The notes under the pieces were generated by a model that ran no database searches, was not told where the DNA came from, and saw only the letters and a program-made list of their open reading frames with translations. This document shows, in pieces, positions 21,771-41,569 of a stretch of DNA of 42,125 nucleotides. Every line of letters starts with the position of its first letter. Within the stretch, counting starts at the first letter, position 1. This DNA comes from a virus. Its lineage: Duplodnaviria > Heunggongvirae > Uroviricota > Caudoviricetes. The translations under genes and the position numbers were made by a program. The stretch spans positions 1 to 42,125 of the IMG/VR virus record IMGVR_UViG_2537561991_000019. One strand, given 5' to 3'.

Positions 21771-21773
21771 AAA

Positions 21774-22170: not shown

Positions 22171-22185
22171 ACGTGGCCACCAGAA

Positions 22186-24486: not shown

Positions 24487-24561
24487 AATAACCTCCCAAT
24501 GAACAGGTATCATCAGGAGGTTATTATAAAATATGATTATTTACTTTGATTGAATTTATTA

Positions 24562-24948: not shown

Positions 24949-24950
24949 AA

Positions 24951-25946
24951 TCAGGGCAGCACGCCTATTGCCAGCGCACGATCGATAAAACGAAATATCA
25001 GCTCCAGCTGGGAGCCATACTTCTCTTCAAATGCCACGGTATCCGCATGCAGCTCGTCGTGATGCTTTCTGCACAAAGGCAACACAAAAAGGTCATGCGC
25101 TTTTGTAGCCATTCCACCCTGACCGTGACCTATCAGGTGGTGGGGATCATCAGCAGGCTTTCCACAACATGCACACGGCTGTGTCTTAACCCAGCGCGTG
25201 TACTTTTCATTAACCCAGCGGCGACGTTTTGGGCGTAACATAAAAGACTCCGGCGACTCCGGATCCACTTTCAGCGCCAGCACCTTTTTCGCTTTATCCT
25301 GGATGATGCTGGTGGCAGGAACCGAAGGCACAAGGTCACTTTCCCGGGTGACAGACGGCACAACAGGCTTCGGTAATCTCAGTGCCTTACGGGCTGCACT
25401 TTCCGGTAAGGCATCCGCCAGGTCATTACGAATCAGCCACCAGCACAGTTCCGGCATTGTCACAACGTGACTGTCATCAAAACCGAGATCCCGACGCACA
25501 ACAGACAACACCCAGCGGGTACAGTTATCCGTTGCCATTGATTCCAGTCGTTCCGTGAACTGATCGCGCAGCTGGTTATCGCAGTGCCAGCACAGACGGA
25601 TTGCACCCGGAGCGTGTCGCATTGTGGTCATGTTCTCGCTGTGCCAGTCGGAATGAGGCCACTGGCAGCCTTTTTCACGAAGTAACCAGCTTTCAAGACA
25701 TTCCACGCCACCAGCACGACGGATCACTGCCTCATTGCGGAACACGGCCCGAACGGCAGGATCATCCGCCAGCGGTTGTGATGCCGCCGGAACGGCACCA
25801 CTGGCGAAAGATGAATAACGCTCCGGCTCAGGCTCCAGCAGGACACGCCCCTGCATAAACAGGGGCATCAGCTCTGAACCTGGCCTGAACAATACGATCC
25901 CCATACGCGGGGCAATTTCAGGGGTCAGTAGTGCTCTCACGGTCAC
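24951..25946 (-). CDS. DUF968-like phage protein with C-terminal HNH-like Cys/His motif
   Basis: 331 aa; C-terminal ...CACCGKPADDPHHLIGHG...LPLCRKHHDELH... resembles an HNH/zinc-finger motif; adjacent to Q. Confidence 0.5.
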   Translation of the reverse strand: MTVRALLTPEIAPRMGIVLFRPGSELMPLFMQGRVLLEPEPERYSSFASGAVPAASQPLADDPAVRAVFRNEAVIRRAGGVECLESWLLREKGCQWPHSDWHSENMTTMRHAPGAIRLCWHCDNQLRDQFTERLESMATDNCTRWVLSVVRRDLGFDDSHVVTMPELCWWLIRNDLADALPESAARKALRLPKPVVPSVTRESDLVPSVPATSIIQDKAKKVLALKVDPESPESFMLRPKRRRWVNEKYTRWVKTQPCACCGKPADDPHHLIGHGQGGMATKAHDLFVLPLCRKHHDELHADTVAFEEKYGSQLELIFRFIDRALAIGVLP

Positions 25947-25947
25947 C

Positions 25948-26757
25948 TCAATGAACGGTATCGAGCAGCTTTAACAGCTCAGGGAATCGGGATTCGAAGA
26001 AATGCGGCTGTGTCTCGCGCGGATTTGCGGGACTGGTGATGTTCTTGCCGAACATGCAACCTTTCGCTGTCAGCGACCAGAATTTTTTGATGTTGTTAAT
26101 CGCAGTGCGGCTGTATCGTTCGCGCTGCTCGACGATCCCCAGTTTCACCATCTGGTGATATGCCTGATTAGCCGTCAGGCGTATACCATACTGCTTCAGC
26201 AGTGCACTCAGTGACAGTGTCGGGCGACTTGAGCCATCAGGCGCGTCAGCAGGAGCATCAATGGCATAGCGCGGTGCCAGATTCGGTAAGCCAACAGCCT
26301 CCTGGAGTTTCTGACAGGCACCAAGCACTGAAGAGTTAGACAGGTTTAATTCCCGGCGCATAAAGTCCAGCAGAATCACACCAGCCTGCATCTTGTCAGC
26401 AGCCTGTCCGGATAATTTTTCCGGTGCGCTGGTTACCATGTCGAAAGTACGGATCACCTTCAGATGGAATGACGGGCTGATCCACATTGCATAGGCATAC
26501 ACCAGTTCCTTGCAGACATACGTTCCCCGTTCATTTCCCCCATGAATCACACTCACCGGGTCAACACCCAAATTCTGGGTGTTGGTCAATTCATGAACAA
26601 GCTCAACAGTTTGTTGGCTGGAAAGAAACTTTCCTGGCTCCTTGGTTCTGGCATTTGCACCAGATGCTACTGCTGCGCGATGCAGATCGTTCAGGCTGTA
26701 ACGCCCATAAGCATCACGACGAACTTCAATACCATCAATGACCATCAGATTATTCAT
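25948..26757 (-). CDS. Phage protein with possible KilA-N-type N-terminal DNA-binding domain
   Basis: 269 aa beginning MNNLMVIDGIEVRRDAYGRYSLNDLHRAA; assignment weak. Confidence 0.35.
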   Translation of the reverse strand: MNNLMVIDGIEVRRDAYGRYSLNDLHRAAVASGANARTKEPGKFLSSQQTVELVHELTNTQNLGVDPVSVIHGGNERGTYVCKELVYAYAMWISPSFHLKVIRTFDMVTSAPEKLSGQAADKMQAGVILLDFMRRELNLSNSSVLGACQKLQEAVGLPNLAPRYAIDAPADAPDGSSRPTLSLSALLKQYGIRLTANQAYHQMVKLGIVEQRERYSRTAINNIKKFWSLTAKGCMFGKNITSPANPRETQPHFFESRFPELLKLLDTVH

Positions 26758-26776
26758 ACTTCGTTTCTCCTCTTAA

Positions 26777-27166
26777 TCAGGCGGCTGCACCCGCCGTTTT
26801 CTCGTACTTACTGATAGTGATCTCGACCTTCCCTTTCGGGATAACCGGTCCCCACTCCACCAGCATTCTTTTCACCTGTCTGTCGTCTTCCCACACACCC
26901 GCGTGGGTCAGGGCGTCAAACAGCGCCTTGTTATAGTTGTCCAGATCACGGATCCGGTTATCCGGCGGAAACAACACGATCTCCACTGAAGCAGGTGCCG
27001 ACGTTGGTTTCGGCAGACGACGTAACTGCTCAACTATTGCTGCGCACGCCGCGCTCTGAAATTTTCGCCCCGCCTCGCTTATCAGGCTCTTACCAGCAAA
27101 TGCCCCTTTGTTGGGGTGTCGCCAGTACGTGTTCACACTGGGCGGGAAAGGAAGGATCAACTTCAT
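26777..27166 (-). CDS. rusA: Holliday junction resolvase RusA
   Basis: 129 aa with the RusA pattern ...DNRIRDLDNYNKALFDALTHAGVWEDDRQV... Confidence 0.85.
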   Translation of the reverse strand: MKLILPFPPSVNTYWRHPNKGAFAGKSLISEAGRKFQSAACAAIVEQLRRLPKPTSAPASVEIVLFPPDNRIRDLDNYNKALFDALTHAGVWEDDRQVKRMLVEWGPVIPKGKVEITISKYEKTAGAAA

Positions 27167-27489
27167 ACTTTCAGGCCCCTCTCATGTAACCAGTGGGCTG
27201 CACGCAACCTGGCGCTCTCCTCACCGGCAAGCAGTGCGCGGATGATACCGACCGCTTCGCTGTCGTCGTCCTTCACTGCGGTATGAAGCGTGATCCCCCG
27301 GGCCACGCCACGCTTTATCGTGATGACGCCTTTTTTCTCCAGTGCGCGAAGATGCTCCACCGCTGCATTCACTGAACGGTATCCCAGCATGGTTGCCACC
27401 TCCTGATTGGTTGGCGGAAAGCCACGCTCTTGCTGGTAAGAAATCAGCATATCCAGCACCTGCTGCTGGCATTGAGTTAACGTCGTCAT
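27163..27489 (-). CDS. LexA-like winged-helix DNA-binding domain protein lacking the S24 peptidase domain
   Basis: 108 aa; LTQCQQQVLDMLISYQQERGFPPTNQEVATMLGYRSVNAAVEHLRALEKKGVITIKRGVARGITL aligns with the LexA N-terminal domain; no C-terminal Ser-Lys peptidase region. Confidence 0.6.
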   Translation of the reverse strand: MTTLTQCQQQVLDMLISYQQERGFPPTNQEVATMLGYRSVNAAVEHLRALEKKGVITIKRGVARGITLHTAVKDDDSEAVGIIRALLAGEESARLRAAHWLHERGLKV

Positions 27490-28139
27490 GCCGCCATCTC
27501 CCTGACAAGTTTTTCTGCCTGCTGGCGAACCTGCGCCAGAAACGCCTCACCACATGCCTCAAGTTCATCGCGCCCGATGTAGCTGATTGCCGGTCCCTTC
27601 CAGGTCTTGTCGAAAACAGCAATAGCACCAGCGAAGAAAGCGCCTGTCGGCACCTGCTTCTCGTCCTTCGGGATAAACCAGGCTGGCAGTTCAAAACCAA
27701 TACGCCCGCGAATAAAAGCAATATGGTCTGCATCTTCCGGCCACCACACTTCGCTGGTGGCAGCTTTGATCAGGAAAACATAGCGCCCGCCTTTATCACG
27801 CATAGCACTGGCATGTTTCATGATGTAACGCATGCCGGTGATGTATTGCCCCTCATGCTGACTGGCGCGGCTGTACGGGGGATTACCAAAGGCAGCACCT
27901 TTAAGCTCCGCAAGACGTTCTGACCAGTCATGCGCCAGCGCGTTGTCTTCCGCAGTGTAATAAGCGGCACATTTGGCGTTATCACCATCAGTGAACAGAT
28001 CCAGAACAAACGGGCCAAACAGGGTGTTAATTCCCCAGAAAATGTTGTCCGGCGTGCGCCACTGATCGCCCACTTCCTTCAGTTCATGGGCTGGTTTGTT
28101 CCGCAGTTCCACCAGCGCCTGGCAATATTTATTACTCAT
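27486..28139 (-). CDS. Phage Dam-family N6-adenine DNA methyltransferase
   Basis: Start at MSNKYCQALVEL (TAATG overlap with the upstream stop); NPPY motif (AFGNPPYS). Confidence 0.75.
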   Translation of the reverse strand: MSNKYCQALVELRNKPAHELKEVGDQWRTPDNIFWGINTLFGPFVLDLFTDGDNAKCAAYYTAEDNALAHDWSERLAELKGAAFGNPPYSRASQHEGQYITGMRYIMKHASAMRDKGGRYVFLIKAATSEVWWPEDADHIAFIRGRIGFELPAWFIPKDEKQVPTGAFFAGAIAVFDKTWKGPAISYIGRDELEACGEAFLAQVRQQAEKLVREMAA

Positions 28140-28633
28140 TAAGCCCCCACGTAATTCCCTGATAGATACCACTCTTCACCTGATGCAGCGCGCTTGCTGC
28201 TTTTCCGTAAGCACCGCTCACGACGCGCCAGAAAATTGTTTCGTTCTGGCTGGGAGTGGCTTTCACGGAATGCCGCCATCCACACGGTTGCAGCACGACG
28301 GTATAAGCCCCTTGACTCCAGTTCTTCAGCCTGGCGGGTCAGGCACAAAATCACCCGGGGATCGTTAGTGCCGACATAGAAATTGCGCACAGGTCTGGTT
28401 TCACGAACTGGTTGTGGTTCCGGCTCCTGCGCTCTCTCAGTCAGGCGTGGGAAATGTCTGCGTGTATCTCCTTCACAACGGTGAGCCACACGCCCACTCT
28501 GACGTAACTTGCTTGCAGACTGCAGAACGCGCTGCCGTGAGTAACCTGCAAAAGCATCCGCAATGTCTCCGGAAGTACACCCCGGATGGGCTTCAATGAA
28601 TTTCTGAACTTCATTCAAAAGACTCATGATCAC
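28139..28633 (-). CDS. Hypothetical protein, possibly with a PerC-like regulator C-terminal region
   Basis: 164 aa; ...GLYRRAATVWMAAF... recalls PerC-family regulators (weak); translationally coupled to flanking genes. Confidence 0.35.
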   Translation of the reverse strand: MIMSLLNEVQKFIEAHPGCTSGDIADAFAGYSRQRVLQSASKLRQSGRVAHRCEGDTRRHFPRLTERAQEPEPQPVRETRPVRNFYVGTNDPRVILCLTRQAEELESRGLYRRAATVWMAAFRESHSQPERNNFLARRERCLRKSSKRAASGEEWYLSGNYVGA

Positions 28634-29448
28634 CCCCTGAATCCTACCGGGATCTGGCTGTAGTCCACATTGTCGTAACTGGCTTTGAAGTACGGGTCCT
28701 CGCGTCTGGCTGCAGATACCGCAGGAACTTCCCAGGATTCTTCGAAATGACGATCCGGACCAAAGAACGTGACAGCCTGTTTCACAAATTGTGTGCCGCT
28801 GTTACCCATCGCAGATACCCAGCCCGCGTAGCGTTTCACACCTTCCAGCATGGTTTCGGGGTTTACCCCCTCATTCAAACGGGCTTTCCAGGCTTTGAAG
28901 GCTGCAGATTTTGAATTGCCACCAGCACGTTTGGGATATACCAGCCATGCCTGCTCAAACTCCGGAGAGTATTCCGGTCGGTTTGAACGAACTCGCACAG
29001 ACTCATCAGCAGATGCACCAACAGCTATTGGTTCATTGACTGGTTCTTTGACTGGTTCAAAAGAGTGACTGGTTCTGGGTGAATCTCCTGCACTACCCCC
29101 TGGTGCAACTCCTGCACTACCTGGTGAATTTGCTGCACCAGATAGTGAATTATTTGCACTACCCCCTAGTGAATCTCCTGCACCATCCAGATGAAGGAGA
29201 TAGATATTACTTGAGTTACCTTTTTCACCTTTCCGGGTGACTTTTTTTACCAGCCCGGACTCACAAAGGGCCGCAATATGATTCATCACAGAACGTTTGC
29301 TAATCTCGCACTGGTCAGCAATATGCTGGTAGCTGGGCCAGCACTCCCCCTGATCGCTGGCATTATCAGCCAGCTTGATCAGAACCAGTTTTCGCAATGG
29401 ATTTCCCACTCGAATTTTCATCGCTTTAACCATCAGCTCCATACTCAT
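28630..29448 (-). CDS. Replication initiator (lambda O-like) with internal origin iterons
   Basis: N-terminal HTH/winged-helix region; Gly/Ser/Ala-rich linker encoded by the repeat array; conserved C-terminal domain. Confidence 0.65.
   Translation of the reverse strand: MSMELMVKAMKIRVGNPLRKLVLIKLADNASDQGECWPSYQHIADQCEISKRSVMNHIAALCESGLVKKVTRKGEKGNSSNIYLLHLDGAGDSLGGSANNSLSGAANSPGSAGVAPGGSAGDSPRTSHSFEPVKEPVNEPIAVGASADESVRVRSNRPEYSPEFEQAWLVYPKRAGGNSKSAAFKAWKARLNEGVNPETMLEGVKRYAGWVSAMGNSGTQFVKQAVTFFGPDRHFEESWEVPAVSAARREDPYFKASYDNVDYSQIPVGFRG
29078..29188. repeat. Candidate replication-origin iterons: about five ~21-23 bp direct repeats inside the O-like gene
   Basis: Plus-strand units ggtgaatctcctgcactaccccc / tggtgcaactcctgcactacc / tggtgaatttgctgcaccag / atagtgaattatttgcactaccccc / tagtgaatctcctgcaccatcc, followed by AT-rich sequence. 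Confidence 0.55.
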
Positions 29449-29669
29449 GCAGCACCTCCGAGATGCTTCATGTTTTTTCCGGAGCGAAAGGCTATAAGCG
29501 GCATACTGACGCGGTAATTACGGCCCAGCGGTTCACAAACCACCTTCTGACATTCACGGTCAACCAGGCTAACACGTAGAACATGCCCTGCAGGCGTGGT
29601 GTACCACTGACCCGGACGAGGACAACGGAAAGTCTGATTGGTAAAACGTTTGAAAATATTCCGGATCAT
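29445..29669 (-). CDS. Small hypothetical protein
   Basis: 74-aa ORF with ATGA-type overlaps to both neighbours. Confidence 0.3.
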   Translation of the reverse strand: MIRNIFKRFTNQTFRCPRPGQWYTTPAGHVLRVSLVDRECQKVVCEPLGRNYRVSMPLIAFRSGKNMKHLGGAA

Positions 29670-30109
29670 TTGCGCCCCCTTACCTCTGAAGAGTTCAGCG
29701 ACGAATGAATAAGACGGGCAAGAAATGCCGCATCGTTAATTCGGTCATACAGACTTACAGCCAGCGGTGATTCAGCTTTTTCCAGCATGGGATAAAGCTG
29801 CTGCAACCAGACCTGATGAATTGATGAAATGTAGGAATAGAGAACGCTGGCGTTATGTGCAACGTCGCTCGGTACAGAGGGCTTTGAAAGCTGTTTCTCC
29901 ATCTGGTTAAAGGCATTGATGTATGCCTCTTTGAACTGGGCAGCACGTTTACCCGTGAAACCCATAGCAAGAAACGCAAAGCCATCGCGGGTTATTTGAT
30001 AGCAAGGTAGTTTGCGAGTACCGCCGTTGGGCTGGCGTACCAAAATTGATGTCTCCGCAAAATTGCGGGCACAAAACTCTGGAGAACAATCCAAAATGCG
30101 AATCTTTTT
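29666..30109 (-). pseudogene. 3' fragment of a Rha-domain regulatory gene split by the IS66 insertion
   Basis: ...YQITRDGFAFLAMGFTGKRAAQFKEAYINAFNQME... is the remembered Rha core; the reading frame rejoins in frame with the fragment at 32809-32931 when the IS and one copy of the target duplication are removed. Confidence 0.7.
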
Positions 30110-30162
30110 GTAACCGGCTCATTTAAACCGTCTGGTCTGTTTCCTCCGGCTCTACAAAAATA

Positions 30163-30840
30163 ATGTCCATCATTTTTAATGGACACTATCGTATGAAACA
30201 CCGGACCTGGATCACTGAAGCTTTACGTCTTCACTTTGAAGAACATTTACCCCGGGTTGTGGCCGGGCGTCGCCTGGGTGTACCAAAATCAACAGTTTGT
30301 AGTATGTTCGTGCGCTTTCGGAGAGCTGGCCTTTCGTGGCCTTTGCCCGCAGGCATGTCGGAGCAGGAACTTGATGCCTGCCTTTACGGACAATTTTCCA
30401 CGGTACCAGTCGTACGTCCTGAAAGCACCGTTATATCCGAAGCCCCCGTGGTAAAAAAACGTCCCCGGCGGCCCAACTTCCCTTATGAGTTTAAAATCGC
30501 CTTAGTGGAGCAGTCACTGCAGCCCGGAGCCTGTGTGGCGCAGATCGCCCGGGAAAACGGAATCAACGATAACCTGCTCTTCAACTGGCGCCATCAATAC
30601 CGGAAAGGTGGCCTGCTGCCTTCCGGAAAAAATATGCCGGCACTGCTTCCCGTGACGTTAACGCCGGAGCCGGATAATAAAATCCCGGCCCCCGCACAGG
30701 AACCAGAGCAGATAAATACACCGTCCGACAGTCTGTGTTGTGAGCTGGTTCTGCCGGCCGGAACTCTCAGGCTTAAAGGTAAACTGACGCCGGCGTTATT
30801 ACAGACACTTATCCGCGAAATAAAAGGGAGCAGCCACTGA
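30163..30840 (+). CDS. IS66-family accessory protein (orfA)
   Basis: First ORF of the element with an HTH-like segment; stop overlaps the orfB start. Confidence 0.65.
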   Translation: MSIIFNGHYRMKHRTWITEALRLHFEEHLPRVVAGRRLGVPKSTVCSMFVRFRRAGLSWPLPAGMSEQELDACLYGQFSTVPVVRPESTVISEAPVVKKRPRRPNFPYEFKIALVEQSLQPGACVAQIARENGINDNLLFNWRHQYRKGGLLPSGKNMPALLPVTLTPEPDNKIPAPAQEPEQINTPSDSLCCELVLPAGTLRLKGKLTPALLQTLIREIKGSSH

Positions 30841-31187
30841 TGATATCTCTCCCTGCAGGTTCGCGTATCTGGCTGGTTGCAGGTATCACCGATATGCGAA
30901 ATGGCTTTAACGGCCTGGCATCAAAAGTTCAGAACGTCCTGAAGGATGACCCGTTCTCCGGACACCTGTTCATCTTCCGCGGACGCCGGGGTGACCAGAT
31001 AAAAGTGTTGTGGGCTGACAGTGACGGACTGTGCCTCTTCACCAAACGCCTGGAGCGGGGCCGCTTCGTCTGGCCAGTCACCCGTGACGGCAAGGTGCAC
31101 CTTACTCCGGCTCAGTTATCCATGCTTCTTGAAGGTATCAACTGGAAGCACCCGAAACGAACGGAACGCGCTGGAATCCGCATATAA
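30840..31187 (+). CDS. IS66-family accessory protein (orfB)
   Basis: 115 aa, MISLPAGSRIWLVAGITDMRNGFNGLA..., characteristic IS66 Orf2. Confidence 0.8.
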   Translation: MISLPAGSRIWLVAGITDMRNGFNGLASKVQNVLKDDPFSGHLFIFRGRRGDQIKVLWADSDGLCLFTKRLERGRFVWPVTRDGKVHLTPAQLSMLLEGINWKHPKRTERAGIRI

Positions 31188-31206
31188 CCCGTTGTAAAGT
31201 GAGGAT

Positions 31207-32779
31207 ATGGACACCTCACTTGCTCATGAGAACGCCCGCCTGCGGGCACTGTTGCAGACGCAACAGGACACCATCCGCCAGATGGCTGAATACAACCGCC
31301 TGCTCTCACAGCGGGTGGCGGCTTATGCTTCCGAAATCAACCGGCTGAAGGCGCTGGTTGCGAAACTGCAACGTATGCAGTTCGGTAAAAGCTCAGAAAA
31401 ACTTCGTGCAAAAACCGAACGGCAGATACAGGAAGCACAGGAGCGAATCAGCGCACTTCAGGAAGAAATGGCGGAAACGCTGGGTGAGCAATATGACCCG
31501 GTACTGCCATCCGCCCTGCGCCAGTCTTCAGCCCGTAAACCGTTACCGGCCTCACTTCCCCGTGAAACCCGGGTTATCCGGCCGGAAGAGGAATGCTGTC
31601 CTGCCTGTGGTGGTGAACTCAGTTCTCTGGGATGTGATGTGTCAGAGCAACTGGAGCTTATCAGCAGCGCCTTTAAGGTTATCGAAACACAACGTCCGAA
31701 ACAGGCCTGTTGCCGGTGCGACCATATCGTGCAGGCACCAGTACCTTCAAAACCCATTGCACGCAGTTATGCCGGAGCGGGGCTTCTGGCCCATGTTGTC
31801 ACCGGGAAATATGCAGACCATCTGCCGTTATACCGCCAGTCAGAAATATACCGTCGTCAGGGAGTGGAGCTGAGCCGTGCCACACTGGGGCGCTGGACAG
31901 GTGCTGTTGCTGAACTGCTGGAGCCGCTGTATGACGTCCTGCGCCAGTATGTGCTGAATGCCCGGTAAAGTCCATGCTGATGATATCCCCGTCCCGGTCC
32001 AGGAGCCGGGCAGCGGTAAAACCCGGACAGCCCGGCTGTGGGTCTACGTCCGTGATGACCGTAACGCCGGTTCACAGATGCCCCCGGCGGTCTGGTTCGC
32101 GTACAGTCCGGACCGGAAAGGTATCCATCCACAAAATCACCTGGCCGGTTACAGCGGTGTGCTTCAGGCCGATGCTTACGGTGGTTACCGGGCGTTATAC
32201 GAATCCGGCAGAATAACGGAAGTCGCGTGTATGGCTCATGCCCGGAGAAAAATCCACGATGTGCATGCAAGAGCGCCCACCTACATCACCACGGAAGCCC
32301 TGCAGCGTATCGGTGAACTGTATGCCATCGAGGCAGAGGTCCGGGGCTGTTCAGCAGAACAGCGTCTGGCGGCAAGAAAAGCCAGAGCCGCGCCACTGAT
32401 GCAGTCACTGTATGACTGGATACAGCAACAGATGAAAACACTGTCGCGTCACTCAGATACGGCAAAAGCGTTCGCATACCTGCTGAAACAGTGGGATGCA
32501 CTGAACGTGTACTGCAGTAATGGCTGGGTGGAAATCGACAACAACATCGCAGAGAACGCCTTACGGGGAGTGGCCGTAGGCCGGAAAAACTGGATGTTCG
32601 CGGGTTCCGACAGCGGTGGTGAACATGCGGCGGTGTTGTACTCGCTGATCGGCACATGCCGTCTGAACAATGTGGAGCCAGAAAAGTGGCTGCGTTACGT
32701 CATTGAACATATCCAGGACTGGCCGGCAAACCGGGTACGCGATCTGTTGCCCTGGAAAGTTGATCTGAGCTCTCAGTAA
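31207..32779 (+). pseudogene. IS66-family transposase (orfC) interrupted by a frameshift near 31958-31968
   Basis: Two overlapping ORFs (253 aa and 273 aa) together have the length and features of one IS66 transposase (leucine-zipper-like N-terminus, CPACGGEL zinc-finger-like motif, catalytic core). Confidence 0.7.
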
Positions 32780-32808
32780 ATATCAATACGGTTCTGACGA
32801 GTCGCTTA

Positions 32809-33537
32809 CATCTTTTTCAGAACATCGTCATGACGTTTAGAGAAGAAGTCAGCAACAGCCAAAGAAGATGTAACAGCCTGACCATCAACGATGGCAATTT
32901 CAGGTTGAGAGAGGGTTGGGAGAGTAGTCATAGTGACAGCCCCGGTAGTCAGTTTTTTAGAAAACTCACCACATGGGACGCCAATCACAGAGGTGGTGAG
33001 ACGTACAGGGTTGGCGTTACCGGAGACTACCGAACCCGGCCCGACCGAAGTCGGCCCTGTACGCCCCACCATAATTTGGGCGTAGCAATGCTCATGACAC
33101 GAAAAAACCGCATGAGCGCGGTTATGCTCAGTAATCAATTTCAGGACGCCAATCCCGGCACCCGCTTTATAAGGTGCCTGAACAGTGTAACGTCCCGGAA
33201 TGGCAGAATCAATGTGCTGGTGGTCCTTCACACTCAACAAAATCACGCCTGAATTTCCACAAAGGACTAAAGCACTCATGCGGGTAGTCTTTGCGAAGAT
33301 AGATAACGCGCTGAGTTTCTGGCTCCCAACGAATAACATGGACATAAAGCCCTCTTCCATCACGAAACCAGCGGTTAAGTTCCTGCACAACTCGCCCCCC
33401 ACAGTCAGGTAAAGTTCTCTGTGGTTACTTACAGCCAGGTGATTTGGTAATCTGCATTCATGCCGTAACAACAGGTGTTCAGCGACACTGACCACCAGCT
33501 GTTGCGACAAACGGTTATTTGCCGTTAAACTGTTCAT
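32809..33537 (-). pseudogene. 5' portion of the IS-disrupted gene; its last 41 codons are the Rha-domain N-terminus
   Basis: MTTLPTLSQPEIAIVDGQAVTSSLAVADFFSKRHDDVLKK runs into the IS inverted repeat. The open frame extends upstream to an ATGA overlap with the preceding gene, so the true start is unclear. Confidence 0.5.
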
Positions 33538-34097
33538 GCGTTAGTTTCTCCACAGACACAAAACGCCACGACGCCCGGAGCTGCACACTCGCGGGCGTCA
33601 CTCTTTTCTAGAGCGCAAAAGATTTTGTAGACCAGTGCTGCATGCTCCTGGAGCTTCGAAATTGACAGATACAACTCATCATTAATTGCTGTCTGCTCGT
33701 GTGGCTCCACTACCCCATCTTCGATTGCCGAACGAATCTGCTTTGAGTAACTCCCGATCTGTTCGATGACTTCCAGCAGGCGCTGGTTTATATCGGCGTT
33801 CTCTACTTCCTCAATTTCAGGAAGCGATACAAACACCCCACCAGCAGACTGTGCGACAGCATCCGCAATGTAGTGAGTGCCAGCCGCGCGCTGTAAAATC
33901 ATTGCCCATCCCAGCGGGAAAATCTGATCGCCATCTGCACGAAGGCGGTTGAATAAAGCGTTCTCTGTTACATCCAGCCACTCAGCAGCTTCAGCGTAAC
34001 CCCCCGGCAACGCCGCGATAGTTTTTCTGACAGCTTTCACGTACCACTCAGGCTGTTTTTCTACTTTCCAGTGATGCTTACCCACGGTTAGCCTCAT
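33534..34097 (-). CDS. Putative CII-like early regulator (assigned by position after cro)
   Basis: 187-aa ORF directly downstream of cro and translationally coupled to the next gene; no confident sequence-level family call. Confidence 0.35.
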   Translation of the reverse strand: MRLTVGKHHWKVEKQPEWYVKAVRKTIAALPGGYAEAAEWLDVTENALFNRLRADGDQIFPLGWAMILQRAAGTHYIADAVAQSAGGVFVSLPEIEEVENADINQRLLEVIEQIGSYSKQIRSAIEDGVVEPHEQTAINDELYLSISKLQEHAALVYKIFCALEKSDARECAAPGVVAFCVCGETNA

Positions 34098-34335: not shown

Positions 34336-34402
34336 TGTACCTCCGATGTACATATTACATGATTGAGATGAACCTTCAAGATACTTGTACCCTATCGGTA
34401 CA
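34336..34402. promoter_or_regulatory. Right-operator-like region: two 17-bp palindromic operators in the cro/cI divergent promoter region
   Basis: TGTACC-TCCGA-TGTACA at 34336-34352 and TGTACC-CTATC-GGTACA at 34386-34402, between the cro start (34329) and cI start (34420); candidate -10/-35 elements overlap them. Confidence 0.55.
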
Positions 34403-34419: not shown

Positions 34420-35094
34420 ATGAAAACAGTCCATGACATCCGGCGGTCTAACGCCAGAAAACTGAGAGATGGTGTTGGCGGGAATTCTTCCTTTGCCACC
34501 ATGATTGATCGCGAGCCAACCCAGACCAGCAGGTTTATGGGAGATGGTGCTACTAAAAATATCGGTGACAGCATGGCACGGCACATCGAAAAATGTTTCG
34601 ACCTGCCTGTCGGATGGCTTGATCAAGAACACCAGACAACAAACATCACAAAAAAACCTGATGTTTCAATTACTAACAAACAAATAACGTTAGTCCCTGT
34701 CATATCATGGGTACAGGCCGGAGCATGGAAAGAAGTTGGCTATTCTGAGGTTGATTTGAGCACAGCAGAAACTTATCCCTGCCCTGTACCCTGTGGCGAA
34801 ATGACTTATATCTTGCGGGTGATTGGTGATTCAATGATTGATGAGTACCGCCCGGGAGACATGATTTTTGTTGATCCTGAAGTCCCTGCCTGCCACGGTG
34901 ACGACGTTATTGCATTGATGCACGATACAGGCGAAACCACCTTCAAGCGGTTGATAGAAGATGGAACACAGCGTTATCTCAAAGCATTAAACCCAAACTG
35001 GCCTGAGCCTTACATTAAGATTAACGGTAATTGCTCTATAATTGGTACAGTAATTTTCTCAGGAAAACCAAGAAGATACAAAATAAAGGCCTAA
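34420..35094 (+). CDS. cI: CI-type prophage repressor (N-terminal HTH, C-terminal S24 LexA-like autopeptidase domain)
   Basis: 224 aa; C-terminal RVIGDSM serine motif and an Ala-Gly candidate cleavage site (VQAGAW); divergent from cro; essentially leaderless. Confidence 0.85.
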   Translation: MKTVHDIRRSNARKLRDGVGGNSSFATMIDREPTQTSRFMGDGATKNIGDSMARHIEKCFDLPVGWLDQEHQTTNITKKPDVSITNKQITLVPVISWVQAGAWKEVGYSEVDLSTAETYPCPVPCGEMTYILRVIGDSMIDEYRPGDMIFVDPEVPACHGDDVIALMHDTGETTFKRLIEDGTQRYLKALNPNWPEPYIKINGNCSIIGTVIFSGKPRRYKIKA

Positions 35095-35106
35095 TCAATA
35101 TTTATA

Positions 35107-35129
35107 ACCTGCTTCGGCAGGTTTTTTTA
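35107..35129 (+). terminator. Intrinsic terminator after cI
   Basis: ACCTGC-TTCG-GCAGGT followed by TTTTTTT, 13 nt after the cI stop. Confidence 0.65.
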
Positions 35130-35132
35130 TAC

Positions 35133-35160
35133 TTGACAATGTACCCTTGAGATACATAAT
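35133..35160 (+). promoter_or_regulatory. PL-like early-left promoter with embedded operator
   Basis: -35 TTGACA (35133-35138), 16-nt spacer, -10 CATAAT (35155-35160); third operator copy TGTACC-CTTGA-GATACA at 35140-35156 overlaps spacer and -10. Confidence 0.5.
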
Positions 35161-35760
35161 GTATCTAAAAGAAACATGCCACAGGCAAGATTAAACAAAA
35201 TTTGCTTGTAACACGGCGTATGGCACATGCGTCGTTAGCGGTCTGGGGACGTTAAAGGGGACAATCCACTCCTTGCTCGGGCAAACAAACCAGGTAGCCG
35301 GAATGTGCAAGTCAATGAGGATGCTGATAAGACGCCTAACCAGCGTGGCGATTCGGTTTGACGCCTGGGAAGAGACCAGGGTGCAACGATGAGGGCATTT
35401 ATGGAGCCGCGACAAAGTGTGGTGCCGTAACTGGCTAAGTGCTCTCAGCGTTGTGGTAATCCGCGAAATGGCGCGGCGGTAAGTATGGCGGGGTTACTCT
35501 TTCCCCGTTGAGGACACCGGATTGTCAGGTTGACCATACGCCTGAGTGACAACCCCACCACAACAGCCACTGCTTTGGCGGTACCAGTTTGTGCACTTGC
35601 TTCCGGCTGGTACCGCTCTTTTTACAAAACAGAGAAGAGCATCACCGGACGACGGGCTCATAACCCAATCCATCCGGGCGGCTGCCACCGCAGGTGTTCT
35701 TCTCTGTTTTGTGGAGAAACCAACCGACCTTGCAGGGTCGATATGATGAGGAGCAGCAAA

Positions 35761-36123
35761 ATGGCTAGCGAACGCAGTACTGATGTGCAGGCATTTATCG
35801 GGGAGTTGGACGGCGGCGTATTTGAAACCAAAATCGGCGCAGTTCTCAGTGAAGTCGCTTCAGGTGTGATGAACACGAAAACCAAAGGTAAGGTCTCACT
35901 CAACCTGGAAATCGAACCATTTGATGAGAACCGTGTGAAAATCAAACACAAACTCTCATATGTTCGCCCGACTAACCGCGGGAAAATTTCTGAAGAAGAC
36001 ACCACCGAAACGCCGATGTATGTCAATCGCGGTGGTCGCCTGACTATTCTGCAGGAAGACCAGGGACAATTACTGACTCTTGCCGGTGAACCTGACGGAA
36101 AACTCCGCGCAGCAGGTCATTAA
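35761..36123 (+). CDS. Hypothetical early-left protein (yfdP-like by position)
   Basis: 120 aa from MASERSTDVQAF with GAGGAG upstream; first clear gene after a ~600-nt leader. Confidence 0.45.
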   Translation: MASERSTDVQAFIGELDGGVFETKIGAVLSEVASGVMNTKTKGKVSLNLEIEPFDENRVKIKHKLSYVRPTNRGKISEEDTTETPMYVNRGGRLTILQEDQGQLLTLAGEPDGKLRAAGH

Positions 36124-36188
36124 TATCGTTCTTAATTAACTGATTATTTATCTCATCACTGAATATCTTTATATAGTGAGGACTTATT

Positions 36189-37013
36189 ATGTCTCAGAAC
36201 TTAGACGCAACCGCAATTAATCAAATCCATGCTCTTATTTCTGCTCAGGGTGTTAATGAAATTATCAGTAAGATTGGTGCCGATGCTGTGGCATTGCCTG
36301 AGAATTTCCGCATTCATGATCTGGAAAAATTTAATTTAAATCGCTTCCGTTTCCGTGGTGCGCTTTCCACTGCCAGCATCGATGACTTTACCCGTTATTC
36401 TAAAGATCTTGCAGATGAAGGCACCCGCTGCTTTATCGACGCCGATAATATGCGTGCCGTCAGTGTACTTAACCTGGGTACTATCGATGAACCAGGTCAC
36501 GCAGATAACACCGCCACTCTCAAACTGAAAAAGACAGCACCGTTCTCTGCCCTGTTGTCTGTTAACGGCGAGCGTAACTCCCAGAAGTCACTGGCAGAAT
36601 GGATTGAAGACTGGGCCGACTACCTTGTGGGCTTTGATGCTAATGGTGACGCCATTCAGGCAACCAAAGCGGCTGCGGCGATCCGTAAAATCACAATTGA
36701 AGCGAACCAGACAGCTGATTTTGAAGATAATGACTTCAGCGGCAAACGCTCCCTGATGGAGTCAGTCGAAGCGAAGACCAAAGACATTATGCCAGTGGCA
36801 TTTGAATTTAAATGCGTTCCGTTTGAAGGCCTGAAAGAACGTCCGTTTAAATTACGCCTCAGCATTATCACTGGCGATCGTCCTGTACTGGTTCTGCGCA
36901 TTATTCAGCTGGAAGCGGTGCAGGAAGAAATGGCTAACGAATTTCGTGATCTGCTTGTTGAGAAATTCAAAGACAGCAAAGTCGAAACCTTTATTGGTAC
37001 TTTCACCGCCTGA
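36189..37013 (+). CDS. yfdQ: YfdQ-like protein (DUF2303 family)
   Basis: 274 aa; size and position upstream of an HD-domain gene match the remembered CPS-53 yfdQ-yfdR arrangement. Confidence 0.6.
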
Positions 37014-37140
37014 TTTCATTACTGCAAATGCCCCTGCGGGGGCATTTATGGAAACGTAATTAACTCAATAATCACCGGATGGTGAGAGCTTCCTTTTACC
37101 AGAATTCAGCGCGGTGCAGCGCATATACGTGGAGAACAAA

Positions 37141-37677
37141 ATGTCATTTATTAAAACTTTTTCCGGGAAGCATTTTTATTATGACAAGATAAATAAAGAC
37201 GACATCGTGCTTAACGATATCGCAGTTTCCCTCTCAAATATCTGTCGCTTTGCAGGGCATCTTTCACACTTCTACAGCGTCGCCCAACATGCGGTGCTTT
37301 GCAGCCAGCTGGTACCGCAGGAGTTTGCTTTCGAAGCGTTAATGCATGATGCAACAGAAGCATATTGCCAGGACATCCCCGCGCCACTGAAACGACTTCT
37401 TCCTGACTATAAACGGATGGAAGAAAAAATAGACGCCGTAATCCGTGAGAAATACGGGTTACCTCCTGTTATGAGCACGCCAGTGAAATATGCCGATCTC
37501 ATTATGCTGGCAACCGAACGCCGCGATCTCGGGCTTGATGATGGCTCTTTCTGGCCTGTACTGGAAGGCATCCCGGCAACAGAGATGTTCAAAGTTATTC
37601 CACTGTCACCAGGCCATGCCTACGGGATGTTTATGGAACGTTTTAACGAGTTATCGGAATTACGCAAATGTGCATAA
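37141..37677 (+). CDS. yfdR: HD-domain phosphohydrolase (YfdR-like 5'-deoxynucleotidase)
   Basis: Start at MSFIKTF preceded by GGAGAA; HD-type metal-binding pattern (...AQHAVLC...MHDATEAY...). Confidence 0.7.
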   Translation: MSFIKTFSGKHFYYDKINKDDIVLNDIAVSLSNICRFAGHLSHFYSVAQHAVLCSQLVPQEFAFEALMHDATEAYCQDIPAPLKRLLPDYKRMEEKIDAVIREKYGLPPVMSTPVKYADLIMLATERRDLGLDDGSFWPVLEGIPATEMFKVIPLSPGHAYGMFMERFNELSELRKCA

Positions 37678-38546
37678 CTCATGTAGTTAGTTTTTCTGGC
37701 GGGAGAACATCTGCATATCTTGTTCACCTGATGGAAGAACAAAGAAAGACTGGAAATAACGTCTGCTACATCTTTATGGATACCGGTTGCGAACATCCGC
37801 TGACATACCGCTTTATTCGGGAGGTTGTGAAGTTCTGGGGCATACCGCTAACTGTGTTGCAGGTCGATATAAATCCAGAGCTTGGGCAGCCAAATGGTTA
37901 TACGGAATGGGAACCAAAGGATATTCAGACACGAATGCCGGTGCTTAAACCGTTTATGGACATGGTAAAAAAATATGGCACGCCATACATCGGCGGCGCG
38001 TTCTGCACTGACAGATTAAAACTCACCCCCTTCACAAAATACTGCGATGACCATTTCGGACGAGGGAATTACATCACATGGCTGGGTATTCGTGCAGACG
38101 AACCTCGTAGGCTGAAACCGAAATCGGGCGTCCGGTATCTTGCCGAGCTATCTGATTTTGATAAGTCGGATGTTATCCGGTGGTGGCATAAACAACCTTT
38201 TGATTTGCAAATCCCGGAGCACCTCGGGAACTGTGTTTTCTGCATCAAAAAGTCCACGCAAAAGCTGGGGCTTGCATGTAAAGACGAACCTGGTCTGATG
38301 CGAGTTTTTAATGAGCTGGTTACAGGTAAACACGTCCGGGATGGTCACCGAAAGACAAATAAAGACGTTATGTACCGTGGTCATCTGAGCCTTGACGGGA
38401 TTGCCAGAATGTATGCCGACAGCGACTACAGAAATTTGTATCAGGCGATGGTGCAAGCCAGGCGATTCGATACCGGCTCGTGTTCAGAGTCATGTGAAAT
38501 CTGGGGTGATCAATTGGAATTGAAATTCGAAGAGGTGGTGGCATGA
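37668..38546 (+). CDS. PAPS-reductase-like / PP-loop ATP pyrophosphatase family protein
   Basis: N-terminal SFSGGRTS PP-loop-like motif; overlaps the end of the yfdR-like gene. Confidence 0.6.
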   Translation: MCITHVVSFSGGRTSAYLVHLMEEQRKTGNNVCYIFMDTGCEHPLTYRFIREVVKFWGIPLTVLQVDINPELGQPNGYTEWEPKDIQTRMPVLKPFMDMVKKYGTPYIGGAFCTDRLKLTPFTKYCDDHFGRGNYITWLGIRADEPRRLKPKSGVRYLAELSDFDKSDVIRWWHKQPFDLQIPEHLGNCVFCIKKSTQKLGLACKDEPGLMRVFNELVTGKHVRDGHRKTNKDVMYRGHLSLDGIARMYADSDYRNLYQAMVQARRFDTGSCSESCEIWGDQLELKFEEVVA

Positions 38547-38746
38547 CAATCGTAAAAACCCATACCGGCATTGTGATCACCAAAGACGGCCCGCAGGTAA
38601 AAAAACTTCACCAGACAGAGCGGATGTGGGTCGTCGGCAAAAACGAGTTTTACCACAAAGAAACCGGACGCCGCCACTTTGCAGAAAATACGCGCCGCCG
38701 ACTACTGATCGACACCATCAAGCCTATCGAGGTGAAGCATGTTTAA
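38543..38746 (+). CDS. Small hypothetical protein
   Basis: 67-aa ORF overlapping the stops and starts of its neighbours in an operon-like arrangement. Confidence 0.35.
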   Translation: MTIVKTHTGIVITKDGPQVKKLHQTERMWVVGKNEFYHKETGRRHFAENTRRRLLIDTIKPIEVKHV

Positions 38747-38978
38747 ACAGAACGAAAAATCTATCGCTCAAATTGCTGAGTATATCCCGCGTGCGTGCCG
38801 GGGTATGCAGTTGCAGGAAGCCAAAGCACGCCTGGAGAAAAAAATTGCGCTCTATATCGATGACGGCTGTGATGCTGCCGTTCTTAACGCGGCGTTCGCG
38901 CCAGCTCTTAACAGTCATACGCGAGAGTCTTTTTTTTCGTGCATCGCTGCGCAGATCCGTAAAGGAGGCAACCAGTGA
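38739..38978 (+). CDS. Small hypothetical protein
   Basis: 79-aa ORF, translationally coupled to neighbours. Confidence 0.35.
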   Translation: MFKQNEKSIAQIAEYIPRACRGMQLQEAKARLEKKIALYIDDGCDAAVLNAAFAPALNSHTRESFFSCIAAQIRKGGNQ

Positions 38979-39373
38979 GCAAGATTGACTATCAGGCACT
39001 GCGTGAGGCGGCGGAACGTGCAATTCAAGCAATGGAACGCCTGTTAATGTTGCCAGCTGCTGATGATTTGTTAAGTGAACAGGAACTTAAAGATTACGGT
39101 GTGGATATTGATGTGCTCAACGCCTTCAAATTTCTGACCGGACCAGAAACCGTGCTGGCGCTGCTGGATGAACTAGAAGCTAAAAACAAACGCATTACAG
39201 AACTGGAAGCGAGGGAAGTTCAATTACCGACTCGCTACGACCTTCGATATGGGCACCCAATAAATGCTGATAAGCGACATGTCATGATACCTAAAGAAAA
39301 TGGCAGTTGGCTTTGCCTGATTGACTTAGAACACGCACTACGCGTCGCTGGCATTCGCATCAAAGGAGAGTGA
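38975..39373 (+). CDS. Hypothetical protein (possibly Ead/Ea22-like)
   Basis: 132-aa ORF with coiled-coil-like middle; family assignment uncertain. Confidence 0.35.
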   Translation: MSKIDYQALREAAERAIQAMERLLMLPAADDLLSEQELKDYGVDIDVLNAFKFLTGPETVLALLDELEAKNKRITELEAREVQLPTRYDLRYGHPINADKRHVMIPKENGSWLCLIDLEHALRVAGIRIKGE

Positions 39374-39374
39374 T

Positions 39375-39638
39375 ATGGCAACTTTGACAAAAAAGGAACA
39401 GGCATGGTTGAGCGAATTACAGAACGTTCTTGATCGCTGCCCGTCACCGAAAAAAATTGGTTTTTACACCATTGGCGATAAAAGCATTTACCTGTATGAC
39501 CTACGCCGCATGGATGAAATCATGGAGGCTCTTGATGATCGTTCGTCAATGGATTGGTGTGTTGCTGTCCATGATATGAATGCCGGATTTAAAGAAAAGA
39601 TTTTGTTCCCCTCGTCAGTTGAAAGCACTGCGGGTTAA
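39375..39638 (+). CDS. Small hypothetical protein
   Basis: 87-aa ORF in the same operon. Confidence 0.35.
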   Translation: MATLTKKEQAWLSELQNVLDRCPSPKKIGFYTIGDKSIYLYDLRRMDEIMEALDDRSSMDWCVAVHDMNAGFKEKILFPSSVESTAG

Positions 39639-39648
39639 GGAGTAACAC

Positions 39649-40227
39649 ATGACCACTATTACCAAAGAACGTATTGAATTGTTCATTAAAAATCCGCTTG
39701 GAAACGGACTTACCCGTGGCGAACAAATGGAACTGGCACGAATTGCACTGGCATCACTGGCAGCAGTATCGGATGAACGAGCAGCCTATGAATTATTTAT
39801 GGAGAAGCGTTTCGGGGAATCTGTAGATCGCCGCAGGGCGAAAAATGGCGATAGAGAATACATGGCATGGGATATGGCGCTTGGCTGGATTATCTGGTGT
39901 CACCGCGCCGCCATGCTTCAGGCTGGAAACTTTCGGGAAAATAAGGATTCGTCAACCAATAATTTTCGGGAAACCTCGGAAACGTCAACCAACTCTCCGG
40001 TAACTCCGGATAGTTGGATAAGCTGTAGTGAGCGAATGCCTGAGAAGAATCAGAACGTGCTCATTTCGGTGAATTTCGATAGCTCTCTGGTTGAACCGCT
40101 AATATGCTCCGCACGCTATACCGGAAGCACTTTTCGGCGCGGAGATGCAACGATTAAGTCGGGTAATGGTATTGAGCAAGCAACTCACTGGATGCCGCTA
40201 CCGGAACCGCCGCAGGAGGTGAAGTGA
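39649..40227 (+). CDS. Hypothetical protein with C-terminal DUF551-like region
   Basis: 192 aa; C-terminal ...WISCSERMPEKNQNVLIS...HWMPLPEPP... recalls DUF551 prophage proteins. Confidence 0.45.
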   Translation: MTTITKERIELFIKNPLGNGLTRGEQMELARIALASLAAVSDERAAYELFMEKRFGESVDRRRAKNGDREYMAWDMALGWIIWCHRAAMLQAGNFRENKDSSTNNFRETSETSTNSPVTPDSWISCSERMPEKNQNVLISVNFDSSLVEPLICSARYTGSTFRRGDATIKSGNGIEQATHWMPLPEPPQEVK

Positions 40228-40799
40228 TGAACAACTTAATGATCGACCTTGAGACGATGGGGAAAAATAAGGATGCGCCGATCGTTTCTATTGGCGCGGT
40301 GTTCTTCACTCCAGAAACCGGAGACATCGGACAAGAATTCTATGCGGTTGTCAGCCTGGACAGTGCTATGAAGCAAGGAGCTACACCTGACGGCGATACC
40401 ATCCTGTGGTGGTTGAAACAAAGCCCTGAAGCGCGAGCTGCAATCTGTATTGATGATACTTTGTCGATCAGCGATGCTCTCTCAGAACTAAACCATTTCA
40501 TTAACCGGCACGCAGACAATACGAAATATTTAAAAGTCTGGGGTAACGGGGCCACCTTCGACAACGTAATTTTACGTGGAGCTTATGAGCGAGCAGGACA
40601 AATCTGCCCGTGGGCGTACTGGAATGACCACGATGTACGCACGATCGTTACGCTTGGGCGTTCCATCGGATTCGACCCCAAAATGGACATGCCTTTCGAT
40701 GGCGAACGGCACAACGCCCTGGCTGATGCCCGTCATCAGGCAAAATATGTTTCCGCTATCTGGCAGAAATTAATTCCTGCCACCAGCACAGAATTATGA
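40224..40799 (+). CDS. DEDDh-type 3'-5' exonuclease
   Basis: IDLETMG (Exo I-like D-x-E) near the N-terminus and ...GERHNALADA... (Exo III-like H/D) near the C-terminus. Confidence 0.65.
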   Translation: MMNNLMIDLETMGKNKDAPIVSIGAVFFTPETGDIGQEFYAVVSLDSAMKQGATPDGDTILWWLKQSPEARAAICIDDTLSISDALSELNHFINRHADNTKYLKVWGNGATFDNVILRGAYERAGQICPWAYWNDHDVRTIVTLGRSIGFDPKMDMPFDGERHNALADARHQAKYVSAIWQKLIPATSTEL

Positions 40800-40808
40800 T
40801 TTTCCCGG

Positions 40809-41108
40809 GTGCAGCCGGTTTTGATGGAGAAAATTATGAACACCTTGTTTTTACTGATGGCTGAATTCAATACCCCAAACATTGAGCTGTCAGCTGTATG
40901 CCAAAAGTATTTCGGTATGAGCCCTAACACAGCAGAAGCGAAAGCAAATGCATGCCAGTTGCCGATCCCGACTTATCGTGTTGGTACATCACAGAAAGCA
41001 AAGCGCTGCATCAACATTCAGGATCTTGCTGAATATATAGATAAACGGCGTGAAGAAGGCAGAATTGAATGGGAGAGGGTAAGAACAAATAGGAAAATAA
41101 ATAACTAA
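40809..41108 (+). CDS. PrtN-like phage transcriptional activator / excisionase-like DNA-binding protein
   Basis: ...MNTLFLLMAEF...INIQDLAEYIDKRREEGR... resembles the PrtN (pyocin activator) family; last gene of the plus-strand operon. Start Met uncertain. Confidence 0.45.
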   Translation: MQPVLMEKIMNTLFLLMAEFNTPNIELSAVCQKYFGMSPNTAEAKANACQLPIPTYRVGTSQKAKRCINIQDLAEYIDKRREEGRIEWERVRTNRKINN

Positions 41109-41112: not shown

Positions 41113-41143
41113 ACAAAAAACCCGCTTCGGCGGGTTAGTTTTC
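41113..41143. terminator. Bidirectional intrinsic terminator between the convergent operons
   Basis: CCCGC-TTCG-GCGGG flanked by AAAAAA on one side and TTAGTTTTC on the other; sits between the plus-strand gene ending at 41108 and the minus-strand gene ending at 41135. Confidence 0.6.
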
Positions 41144-41569
41144 ATCTTTATAATTCTGGGCAATTCGCGCCAGATAGCTCATCACATCATGTTTTCTTGC
41201 TTTTTCATGTGCATCGGGATACATAATAGCAATGAGTGAATATTTATTCTCATAAAGCTCACCTTGGACATACACAAGACAAGCATCATTATCAGGATCA
41301 CCTTTCTTGCAGACCCTATCCGGTTGTGGAAGTTTCTCGGGAAACTTGTTTGGCGGTAGACAAAGATGGATATGCATCAACCCAGCCCGAAAAGCACCAT
41401 AAGGCTGAGTATACGCAACGTCCCTACCGAAATAATGCGGAAGCTCACCGGTTGCTTTGTATCTCTTGAAATCATCAATGATAGAAGACTCTAGCTCCGG
41501 GAATTTGAGAAAAACTTCATCAAAAAATTCAGCTCTAGTTTCTGGATTAATAGAGACTTCTAGATGCAT
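41135..41569 (-). CDS. Hypothetical protein, possibly a YafO-family toxin
   Basis: 144 aa; several motifs (...HYFGRD...HIHL...LVYVQG...SLIAIMYPDAHEKAR...) resemble my recollection of YafO-family mRNA interferases; AT-rich locus. Memory-based and unverified. Confidence 0.3.
   Translation of the reverse strand: MHLEVSINPETRAEFFDEVFLKFPELESSIIDDFKRYKATGELPHYFGRDVAYTQPYGAFRAGLMHIHLCLPPNKFPEKLPQPDRVCKKGDPDNDACLVYVQGELYENKYSLIAIMYPDAHEKARKHDVMSYLARIAQNYKDEN

Follow-up and report, generated by a model that had tools for sequence, protein, structure and literature searches.

The window analysed here is a stretch of 42,125 nucleotides, positions 1 to 42,125 of the IMG/VR virus record IMGVR_UViG_2537561991_000019 (Caudoviricetes). 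Four genes on its + strand, at 35761-38546, are yfdP, yfdQ, yfdR and a homologue of the phage lambda gene ninC. The initial annotation had read them as one conserved cluster, in which an HD-domain deoxynucleotidase and a PP-loop enzyme would serve a single pathway. This unity is not supported. Because the genes are distributed separately and a mosaic joint lies between them, we see two neighbouring modules rather than one pathway, and it is very probable that yfdP-yfdQ-yfdR and the ninC-like gene are indeed separate mosaic modules. When the functions that we propose for both modules are included, the reading has about an even chance of being right. The genes and the joint are listed here together with two small open reading frames (ORFs) that belong to the second module.

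35761-36123, + strand: yfdP, 120 amino acids (PHROG 204, E 1e-49).
36189-37013, + strand: yfdQ, 274 amino acids, DUF2303 (PF10065; Pfam E 6e-93).
37141-37677, + strand: yfdR, HD-domain phosphohydrolase, 178 amino acids (PHROG 318, E 1e-110; HD protein of PDB 2gz4, E 3e-13).
37666-37675, no strand: mosaic recombination joint where the yfdPQR module meets the ninC-like one, placed by the limits of DNA homology.
37668-38546, + strand: homologue of lambda NinC, 292 amino acids, PP-loop/adenine-nucleotide alpha-hydrolase fold (PHROG 424, E 1e-93; PF01507 at the N-terminus, E 4e-9).
38543-38746, + strand: small ORF, 67 amino acids (PHROG 1226/1344 pair).
38739-38978, + strand: small ORF, 79 amino acids (PHROG 1226/1344 pair), overlapping the stop of the 67-residue ORF.

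ORF calling confirmed the four co-directional reading frames, and the four family calls made earlier were upheld by Pfam and PHROG profile matches. YfdP, YfdQ and YfdR are 99.2%, 99.6% and 97.8% identical to their counterparts in Escherichia coli K-12. YfdP is assigned to PF27127 through a 99%-identical database cluster (P0241), and its position next to yfdQ agrees with this. YfdQ is a full-length member of DUF2303, with 311 bits against a cut-off of 26.6 over residues 7-272. The yfdR frame is open from a GTG at 37114, but translation most likely begins at the ATG at 37141, since M10 (numbering from 37114) is invariant in 42 orthologues and is also the K-12 start. Counted from this ATG, the gap between yfdQ and yfdR is about 127 nt; that between yfdP and yfdQ is 65 nt, while yfdR and the ninC-like gene overlap by 10 nt and the ninC-like gene and the next ORF by 4 nt. 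The 3.4 kb around the four ORFs are 98-99.4% identical in other E. coli chromosomes, where the annotation is identical. The locus is thus an ordinary mosaic, already annotated in hundreds of E. coli genomes under known gene names.

The joint is seen most directly at the DNA level. Homology to the CPS-53 (KpLE1) prophage of K-12 (97.2%) spans 35742-37675 and then ends, and homology to the Shiga toxin (Stx) phage Lys12581Vzw (91.9%) begins at 37666, covers ninC and the two small ORFs and ends at 39042. Since the one ends where the other starts, the joint falls inside the 10-nt overlap of yfdR and ninC. CPS-53 has the yfdP-yfdQ-yfdR order and spacing of the window, but at the same overlap position it joins yfdR to yfdS and has no NinC, whereas in the window yfdR is followed by the ninC-like gene, the two small ORFs, Ead/Ea22 and an ORF of 87 amino acids. 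The small ORFs travel with ninC: they share its block of homology to the Stx phage, and they stand beside ninC in loci without any yfd gene. BLASTP of the two found no similarity to lambda NinD or NinE, or to p0017, p0019 or p0020 of Vibrio phage 44E38.1.

The distribution of the genes divides along the same line. Across species we compared 61 YfdQ loci, taking one locus per species (Enterobacterales together with Pseudomonas, Alcanivorax, Hydrogenophaga and Gallionella). All 61 have yfdP directly upstream of yfdQ, 50 have a CI-like repressor upstream of the pair, and 44 have a YfdR-type HD gene within 1.5 kb downstream of yfdQ, directly adjacent in 38. A NinC-like gene within 6 kb of yfdQ was found in 0/61. 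According to PMC12315714, the trio of yfdP, yfdQ and HD gene is a common lambdoid early-left cluster.

Starting from the other side, we examined 80 viral contigs with close NinC relatives. The loci with at least 94% identity are the window's own E. coli lineage; all with enough upstream sequence have yfdR beside ninC, and nearly all have yfdP-yfdQ as well. At 91-93% identity, eight loci lack an HD gene and have strongly diverged copies of yfdP (57%) and yfdQ (52%), while ten carry no yfd gene at all. The group at 78-81% consists of lambda-type nin regions. NinC lies in the nin region without yfd genes in lambda and P22-like phages, and neither an HD nor a yfd gene accompanies it in lambda, SE16, Oslo and Vibrio phages. 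In the Stx phage Lys12581Vzw the order is Gam-RecT-Exo-SSB, a yfdP-like gene, a DUF2303 gene, an unrelated ORF of 147 amino acids, NinC and the same two small ORFs. Of 5,426 complete E. coli genomes, 2,661 have the yfdQ-yfdR junction, 283 have the yfdR-ninC junction and 423 have this ninC allele. Conserved co-occurrence, whose absence the initial annotation itself had named as a refutation of its reading, is thus lacking in the species loci, the viral contigs and the E. coli genomes.

Both modules appear to be under the control of the early-left promoter, as had been proposed from the sequence alone, and the elements that support this lie immediately upstream of yfdP.

34420-35094, + strand: CI-like repressor of the S24/LexA type (NCBIfam profile search).
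35106-35123, + strand: terminator-like hairpin after the repressor gene (hairpin/promoter scan).
35133-35160, + strand: pL-like sigma-70 promoter, TTGACA-16-CATAAT (promoter scan, 11/12 matches).
35140-35156: operator-like 17-mer TGTACCY-N4-RRTACA, overlapping the pL-like promoter (sequence motif count).
35577-35717, + strand: conserved leader RNA (fold statistics, cross-genus conservation, covariation).
About 35577-35622, + strand: terminator-like hairpin with a U-run, the first part of the conserved leader.
35619-35717, + strand: long covarying hairpin of about 100 nt, directly upstream of yfdP.

The only other copies of the operator 17-mer in the window, at 34336-34352 and 34386-34402, both lie between the divergent cro-like and cI genes, and its six strand-matches in the whole window compare with 0.19 expected by chance. 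The repressor, the pL-like promoter and the operator shared with the cro/cI region together uphold a repressor-controlled early-left promoter. The stretch 35761-38546 would then be the promoter-proximal part of a CI-repressed pL operon, and both modules would be expressed only after derepression. No N-like ORF lies between pL and yfdP (leader 35161-35760).

The leader between promoter and yfdP is about 600 nt long and, with 596 nt folded, has a folding z of -4.5. Over its last 140 nt the nucleotide identity is 72-97% across more than 20 genera, in which YfdQ itself is only 55-70% identical. In the long hairpin 97.4% of cells are paired and nine pairs show compensatory changes; none of 500 shuffles reaches the observed value, and slid controls are at most 64% paired. 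The conserved G-U pairs make the hairpin specific to the + strand. A search of the leader against Rfam gave no credible match. The leader of lambda N carries an RNase III-sensitive hairpin, and by analogy the hairpin found here may likewise serve RNase III cleavage or translation control, or be another cis-regulator of the early-left operon. A put-like element as in HK022 is less likely, because the terminator-like hairpin comes first. In CPS-53 the repressor/pL region is lost and the conserved leader RNA is gone (no match in locus L150).

For the yfdPQR module, the clearest lead to a function comes from work on K-12. YfdR binds domain I of DnaA through Phe46, in competition with DiaA and DnaB (Noguchi & Katayama 2016, PMC4776307). 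In the same study, multicopy yfdQ and yfdR plus yfdS or yfdT suppress over-initiation mutants, and they inhibit initiation at oriC in wild-type cells and in vitro. The statement that the combined role of the cluster is undefined therefore stands only in part, as the binding of YfdR to DnaA and the block of initiation are published. The window also encodes a protein that resembles both of the remaining K-12 components.

39649-40227, + strand: protein of 192 amino acids, YfdT-like at the N-terminus and DUF551 (YfdS-type) at the C-terminus (DUF551 E 2e-22, residues 122-189).

Its residues 1-89 are 57% identical to K-12 YfdT, so the YfdT-like and DUF551 parts are fused here, whereas yfdS and yfdT are separate genes in K-12. 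The protein is a candidate third component of the replication-inhibition set, and with yfdQ and yfdR the whole K-12 inhibitory set is represented in the window. After induction, yfdP-yfdQ-yfdR would shut off new rounds of host chromosome replication, as a form of host takeover.

YfdR is probably also an enzyme. All 42 orthologues compared, which are 40-98% identical, keep the ligands of its HD site, namely H59, H78-D79, E82 and D128 (numbering from 37114). As these metal ligands do not vary, hydrolytic activity is likely to be under selection, which implies that YfdR would also hydrolyse a nucleotide substrate. PHROG 318 is annotated as a dNMP phosphatase, and the RefSeq name of yfdR is 5'-deoxynucleotidase. 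YfdR shares the motif H...HD..E...D with the HD 5'-deoxynucleotidases YfbR and phage T5 Dmp, but it differs from the YfbR family in scoring below the curated cut-offs of both Pfam (PF12917, 24.2 against 25.9) and NCBIfam (NF003009, 19.8 against 122).

The partners of YfdR are harder to place. The YfdQ family comprises 1,842 clusters at 50% identity in a full search with its hidden Markov model; the best 150 matches are single-domain proteins of about 264-288 amino acids, apart from a few shorter fragments, and include no fusions. Among 143 diverse representatives, E46, T61, G97, H104, Q132, D141 and R166 are at least 95% conserved, and these residues are compatible with an active or binding site, without being diagnostic of one. 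The PDB entry 9o7m, 'YfdQ Protein', has 36 chains of one sequence and belongs to the DUF2303 family (E 3e-59); its oligomeric state may hold a clue to the role of YfdQ, and a literature search found no paper describing it. NCBIfam gave no match for YfdP or YfdQ, and PADLOC none for YfdP, YfdQ, YfdR or the 67- and 79-residue ORFs. In Burkholderia phage JC1 a DUF2303 protein was detected in virions. As yfdP and yfdQ sit right behind pL in most loci, we also considered an N-like antiterminator. This was rejected: Stx phages place both genes after Gam-RecT-Exo-SSB, and YfdP has no arginine-rich motif.

The fourth protein is the counterpart of lambda NinC (orf290). In a tblastn comparison with isolated phages, the two are 78% identical (227/290) over the full length and without gaps, and they agree in length, motifs and C-terminal tail. 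The gene order differs: lambda ninC stands between ninB and ninD in the early-right nin region, and the gene of the window in the early-left operon, after yfdR and before unrelated small ORFs. Lambda NinC is non-essential and uncharacterised.

Across 38 homologues (52-93% identical) the motifs SFSGGRxS, DTGxEH, C113, GNC189xFC192xKK and SC272SESC276E are invariant. Distant phage members keep them as SFSGG(R/Q)xS, (D/N)TGxEH, C113, GNC189xxC192xKK and C272-x3-C276-E, and all family cysteines except C126 persist in Chi-like and Vibrio phage members of 30% identity. A metal or Fe-S site would be consistent with the conserved cysteines. The AlphaFold2 model has a predicted local distance difference test (pLDDT) score of 86.5, with a disordered, cysteine-bearing tail at 266-292. 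Its best PDB folds are CysH and APS reductase (E 3e-5, TM-score 0.37-0.47), and with these and other PP-loop enzymes it shares only the core fold.

The initial annotation had also pointed out that PAPS-reductase-like enzymes act in DNA modification and defence, and this link is strengthened by two comparisons. The best PADLOC match is SspD (E 1.4e-15, residues 5-150), followed by BrxP and DndC (E about 1e-3). A homologue that is 55% identical to the NinC-like protein (157/283, E 2e-110) is the PAPS domain of p0018 of Vibrio phage 44E38.1 (cluster P0094), which belongs to an anti-Dnd cassette. When p0018 and p0019 were moved into a sensitive phage, it gained full infectivity on a Dnd-restricting host (Piel et al., 10.1101/2021.05.05.442762), and PMC13551039 refers to that work as a phage PAPS reductase aiding Dnd evasion. 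The protein of the window shares the PAPS-reductase-like PP-loop N-terminal domain with DndC and SspD, but it is much shorter than the DndC profiles (468-481 positions), and the SspD match covers residues 5-150 only. It is not part of a Dnd or Ssp system of its own, as no DndA/B/D/E or SspA/B/C partner is found among the neighbouring ORFs.

Several NinC homologues are fused C-terminally to a Dam methylase (PF05869), as p0018 is. In Salmonella phage Oslo a separate Dam gene lies immediately upstream of ninC. The window has such a methylase as well.

27486-28172, - strand: Dam-type adenine methyltransferase in the nin-equivalent region (PF05869, E 1e-45).

What is a single PAPS-Dam fusion in the Vibrio phage is thus present in the prophage as two separate genes, which belong to different operons. 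On PHROG 33262 the NinC-like protein aligns with positions 2-279 and the Dam protein with positions 283-492, and the latter shares 28% identity with the Dam domain of p0018 (E 1e-13). With p0018 the NinC of the window has all conserved motifs in common. The arrangement differs: in 44E38.1 a NinC-Dam fusion is accompanied by p0019, whereas here ninC and the Dam gene are about 10 kb apart and no p0019 homologue was found.

Tentatively, and with some doubt on our part, the NinC family may be a stand-alone counter-defence enzyme, ATP-dependent through its PP-loop, with a cysteine-ligated metal or Fe-S site and a catalytic cysteine tail, acting on DNA against Dnd/Ssp and perhaps together with Dam. 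In the prophage, the second module (NinC and the two small ORFs) would counter phosphorothioate-dependent restriction, with NinC acting on phage DNA or on the restriction machinery and its protection possibly given jointly with the prophage's own Dam methylase. No paper linking NinC with phosphorothioation was found in the literature searched, and the preprint of Piel et al. does not mention NinC.

Several observations weigh against the two-module reading or the functions attached to it. In three viral loci (L015, L032 and L037) yfdR lies directly upstream of ninC with no yfdPQ, despite 8 kb of upstream sequence; this hints that some yfdR-ninC linkage is independent of yfdPQ, and it is the sole hint of such an association. 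The inhibition of replication in K-12 was seen solely with multicopy or overproduced genes, deletion of yfdQRST gave no initiation phenotype, and yfdP was dispensable for the effects (PMC4776307). Because the inhibition appeared under oversupply and the deletion is silent, the role of yfdPQR in the phage cycle is one that we infer. The strict coupling of yfdP and yfdQ and the size of the YfdQ family suggest a primary function yet to be found, and the AlphaFold2 model of YfdQ (pLDDT 76) has no significant fold neighbour in the libraries searched, which do not include 9o7m. On the NinC side, the Vibrio PAPS domain was transferred only with the Dam domain and p0019, so that its contribution was not separated (10.1101/2021.05.05.442762), and NinC in the window is unfused, unlike the Vibrio PAPS-Dam protein that was tested.

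How do other explanations compare with two separate modules? A single pathway of all four genes, with the HD deoxynucleotidase and the PP-loop enzyme jointly altering the nucleotide pool or producing a modified DNA base or backbone, is improbable. It would account for the 10-nt overlap of yfdR and ninC, for the 283 E. coli genomes with that junction and for the three viral loci that keep it without yfdPQ, and Chi-like phages place a distant NinC homologue near ThyX and a nucleoside 2-deoxyribosyltransferase. Set against this are the absence of NinC from the 61 YfdQ loci, its presence without HD or yfd genes in lambda, SE16, Oslo and Vibrio phages and in P22-like nin regions, the 283 yfdR-ninC junctions against 2,661 for yfdQ-yfdR, the breakpoint exactly between yfdR and ninC, and yfdS following yfdR in K-12 at the same overlap; Stx phages, moreover, pair ninC with diverged yfdPQ but have the unrelated 147-residue ORF instead of the HD gene. 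There is similarly little chance that yfdP-yfdQ-yfdR is an unrecognised recombination or repair module replacing Red/Erf in phages without a Rec module. The early-left ORFs do lack Bet, RecT, Erf and Gam, and the window holds 21 Chi sites against 1.9 expected, as in LLS-type phages; a weak sensitivity of the yfdQ deletion to methyl methanesulfonate is cited in PMC4776307, and phage JC1 has its DUF2303 gene near RecT/YqaJ. But Lys12581Vzw has Gam, RecT, Exo and SSB besides its yfdP-like and DUF2303 genes, PMC12315714 concludes likewise from phage ArgO145, and YfdQ has no fold similarity to single-strand annealing proteins or nucleases. Hidden recombination activity is unlikely for yfdP and yfdQ, since both also occur alongside complete Rec modules.

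The two remaining explanations concern the fourth gene alone. We give little credence to NinC as a recombination accessory factor acting with NinB/Orf and NinG/Rap. Some annotations do read 'NinC-like recombination protein', and ninC adjoins ninB in lambda, SE16 and Oslo and lies near ninG in Vibrio phages, but the gene of the window is in another operon, far from any ninB or ninG. Its PP-loop and cysteine motifs are unlike any known recombination mediator, and no recombination phenotype is reported for the non-essential lambda gene in the literature searched. That the protein is a true PAPS/APS reductase, an auxiliary metabolic gene (AMG) product boosting host sulfur assimilation, is very improbable, although the PF01507 match, the best PDB folds and common 'AMG' annotations point that way. 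The Pfam match spans only profile positions 2-66 of 175 (66/175 positions covered), the score against the CysH model NF002537 is 20 bits with a cut-off of 154, and the ECGLH motif is replaced by the invariant SCSESCE. The TM-scores of the fold matches are low, as given above, and members of the family are fused to a DNA methylase. Two separate modules, one proposed to act on host replication and the other on restriction, remain our preferred account of the locus, at the graded strengths given above.

The wider setting is that of a Chi-rich lambdoid E. coli prophage without a Red/Erf-type recombination module. Pfam and PHROG profiles found no Red-, Erf-, RecT-, Bet- or Gam-type gene among the ORFs at 35761-41108, and the sole nuclease there is an Rv2179c-like 3'-5' exonuclease. 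The window is enriched about 11-fold in Chi (GCTGGTGG), with 16 of the 21 sites on the - strand (sites e.g. in 15842-33845). Chi richness and the lack of a Rec module match the lambdoid phages that PMC12315714 calls 'LLS-type'. The remaining features of the operon and of the prophage end are as follows.

40224-40799, + strand: Rv2179c-like 3'-5' exonuclease, downstream in the same operon (Pfam/PHROG).
40809-41108, + strand: PrtN/excisionase-like gene.
41119-41136: bidirectional terminator-like hairpin.
41135-41569, - strand: YafO-family toxin gene, convergent with the PrtN/excisionase-like gene.

About 20 of the 61 species-level loci encode a homologue of the exonuclease no more than 5 kb downstream of yfdQ, which makes it a frequent but not constant companion. 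The segment 40809-41569 resembles a moron of the toxin-antitoxin type, placed at the end of the prophage. On the early-right side, three transposase ORFs of insertion sequence elements (PHROG 2422 and 688; 30163-32779, + strand) separate the O-like replication gene at 28630-29448 from the cII-like/regulator genes. Because they intervene, the early-right operon appears to be interrupted and the prophage may be defective.

For the biology of these phages, YfdR stands out as one of the rare phage proteins with a known target in the host initiator DnaA. YfdP and YfdQ form a very widespread and strictly coupled gene pair behind pL, without fold relatives or a known activity. If NinC is a counter-defence enzyme, an orphan gene of lambda would gain a function, and it would become clear why ninC is found now in the nin region, now in the early-left operon and now fused to Dam. 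The sequence link between lambda NinC and the anti-Dnd protein makes the function of this orphan gene testable in the best-developed phage genetic system.

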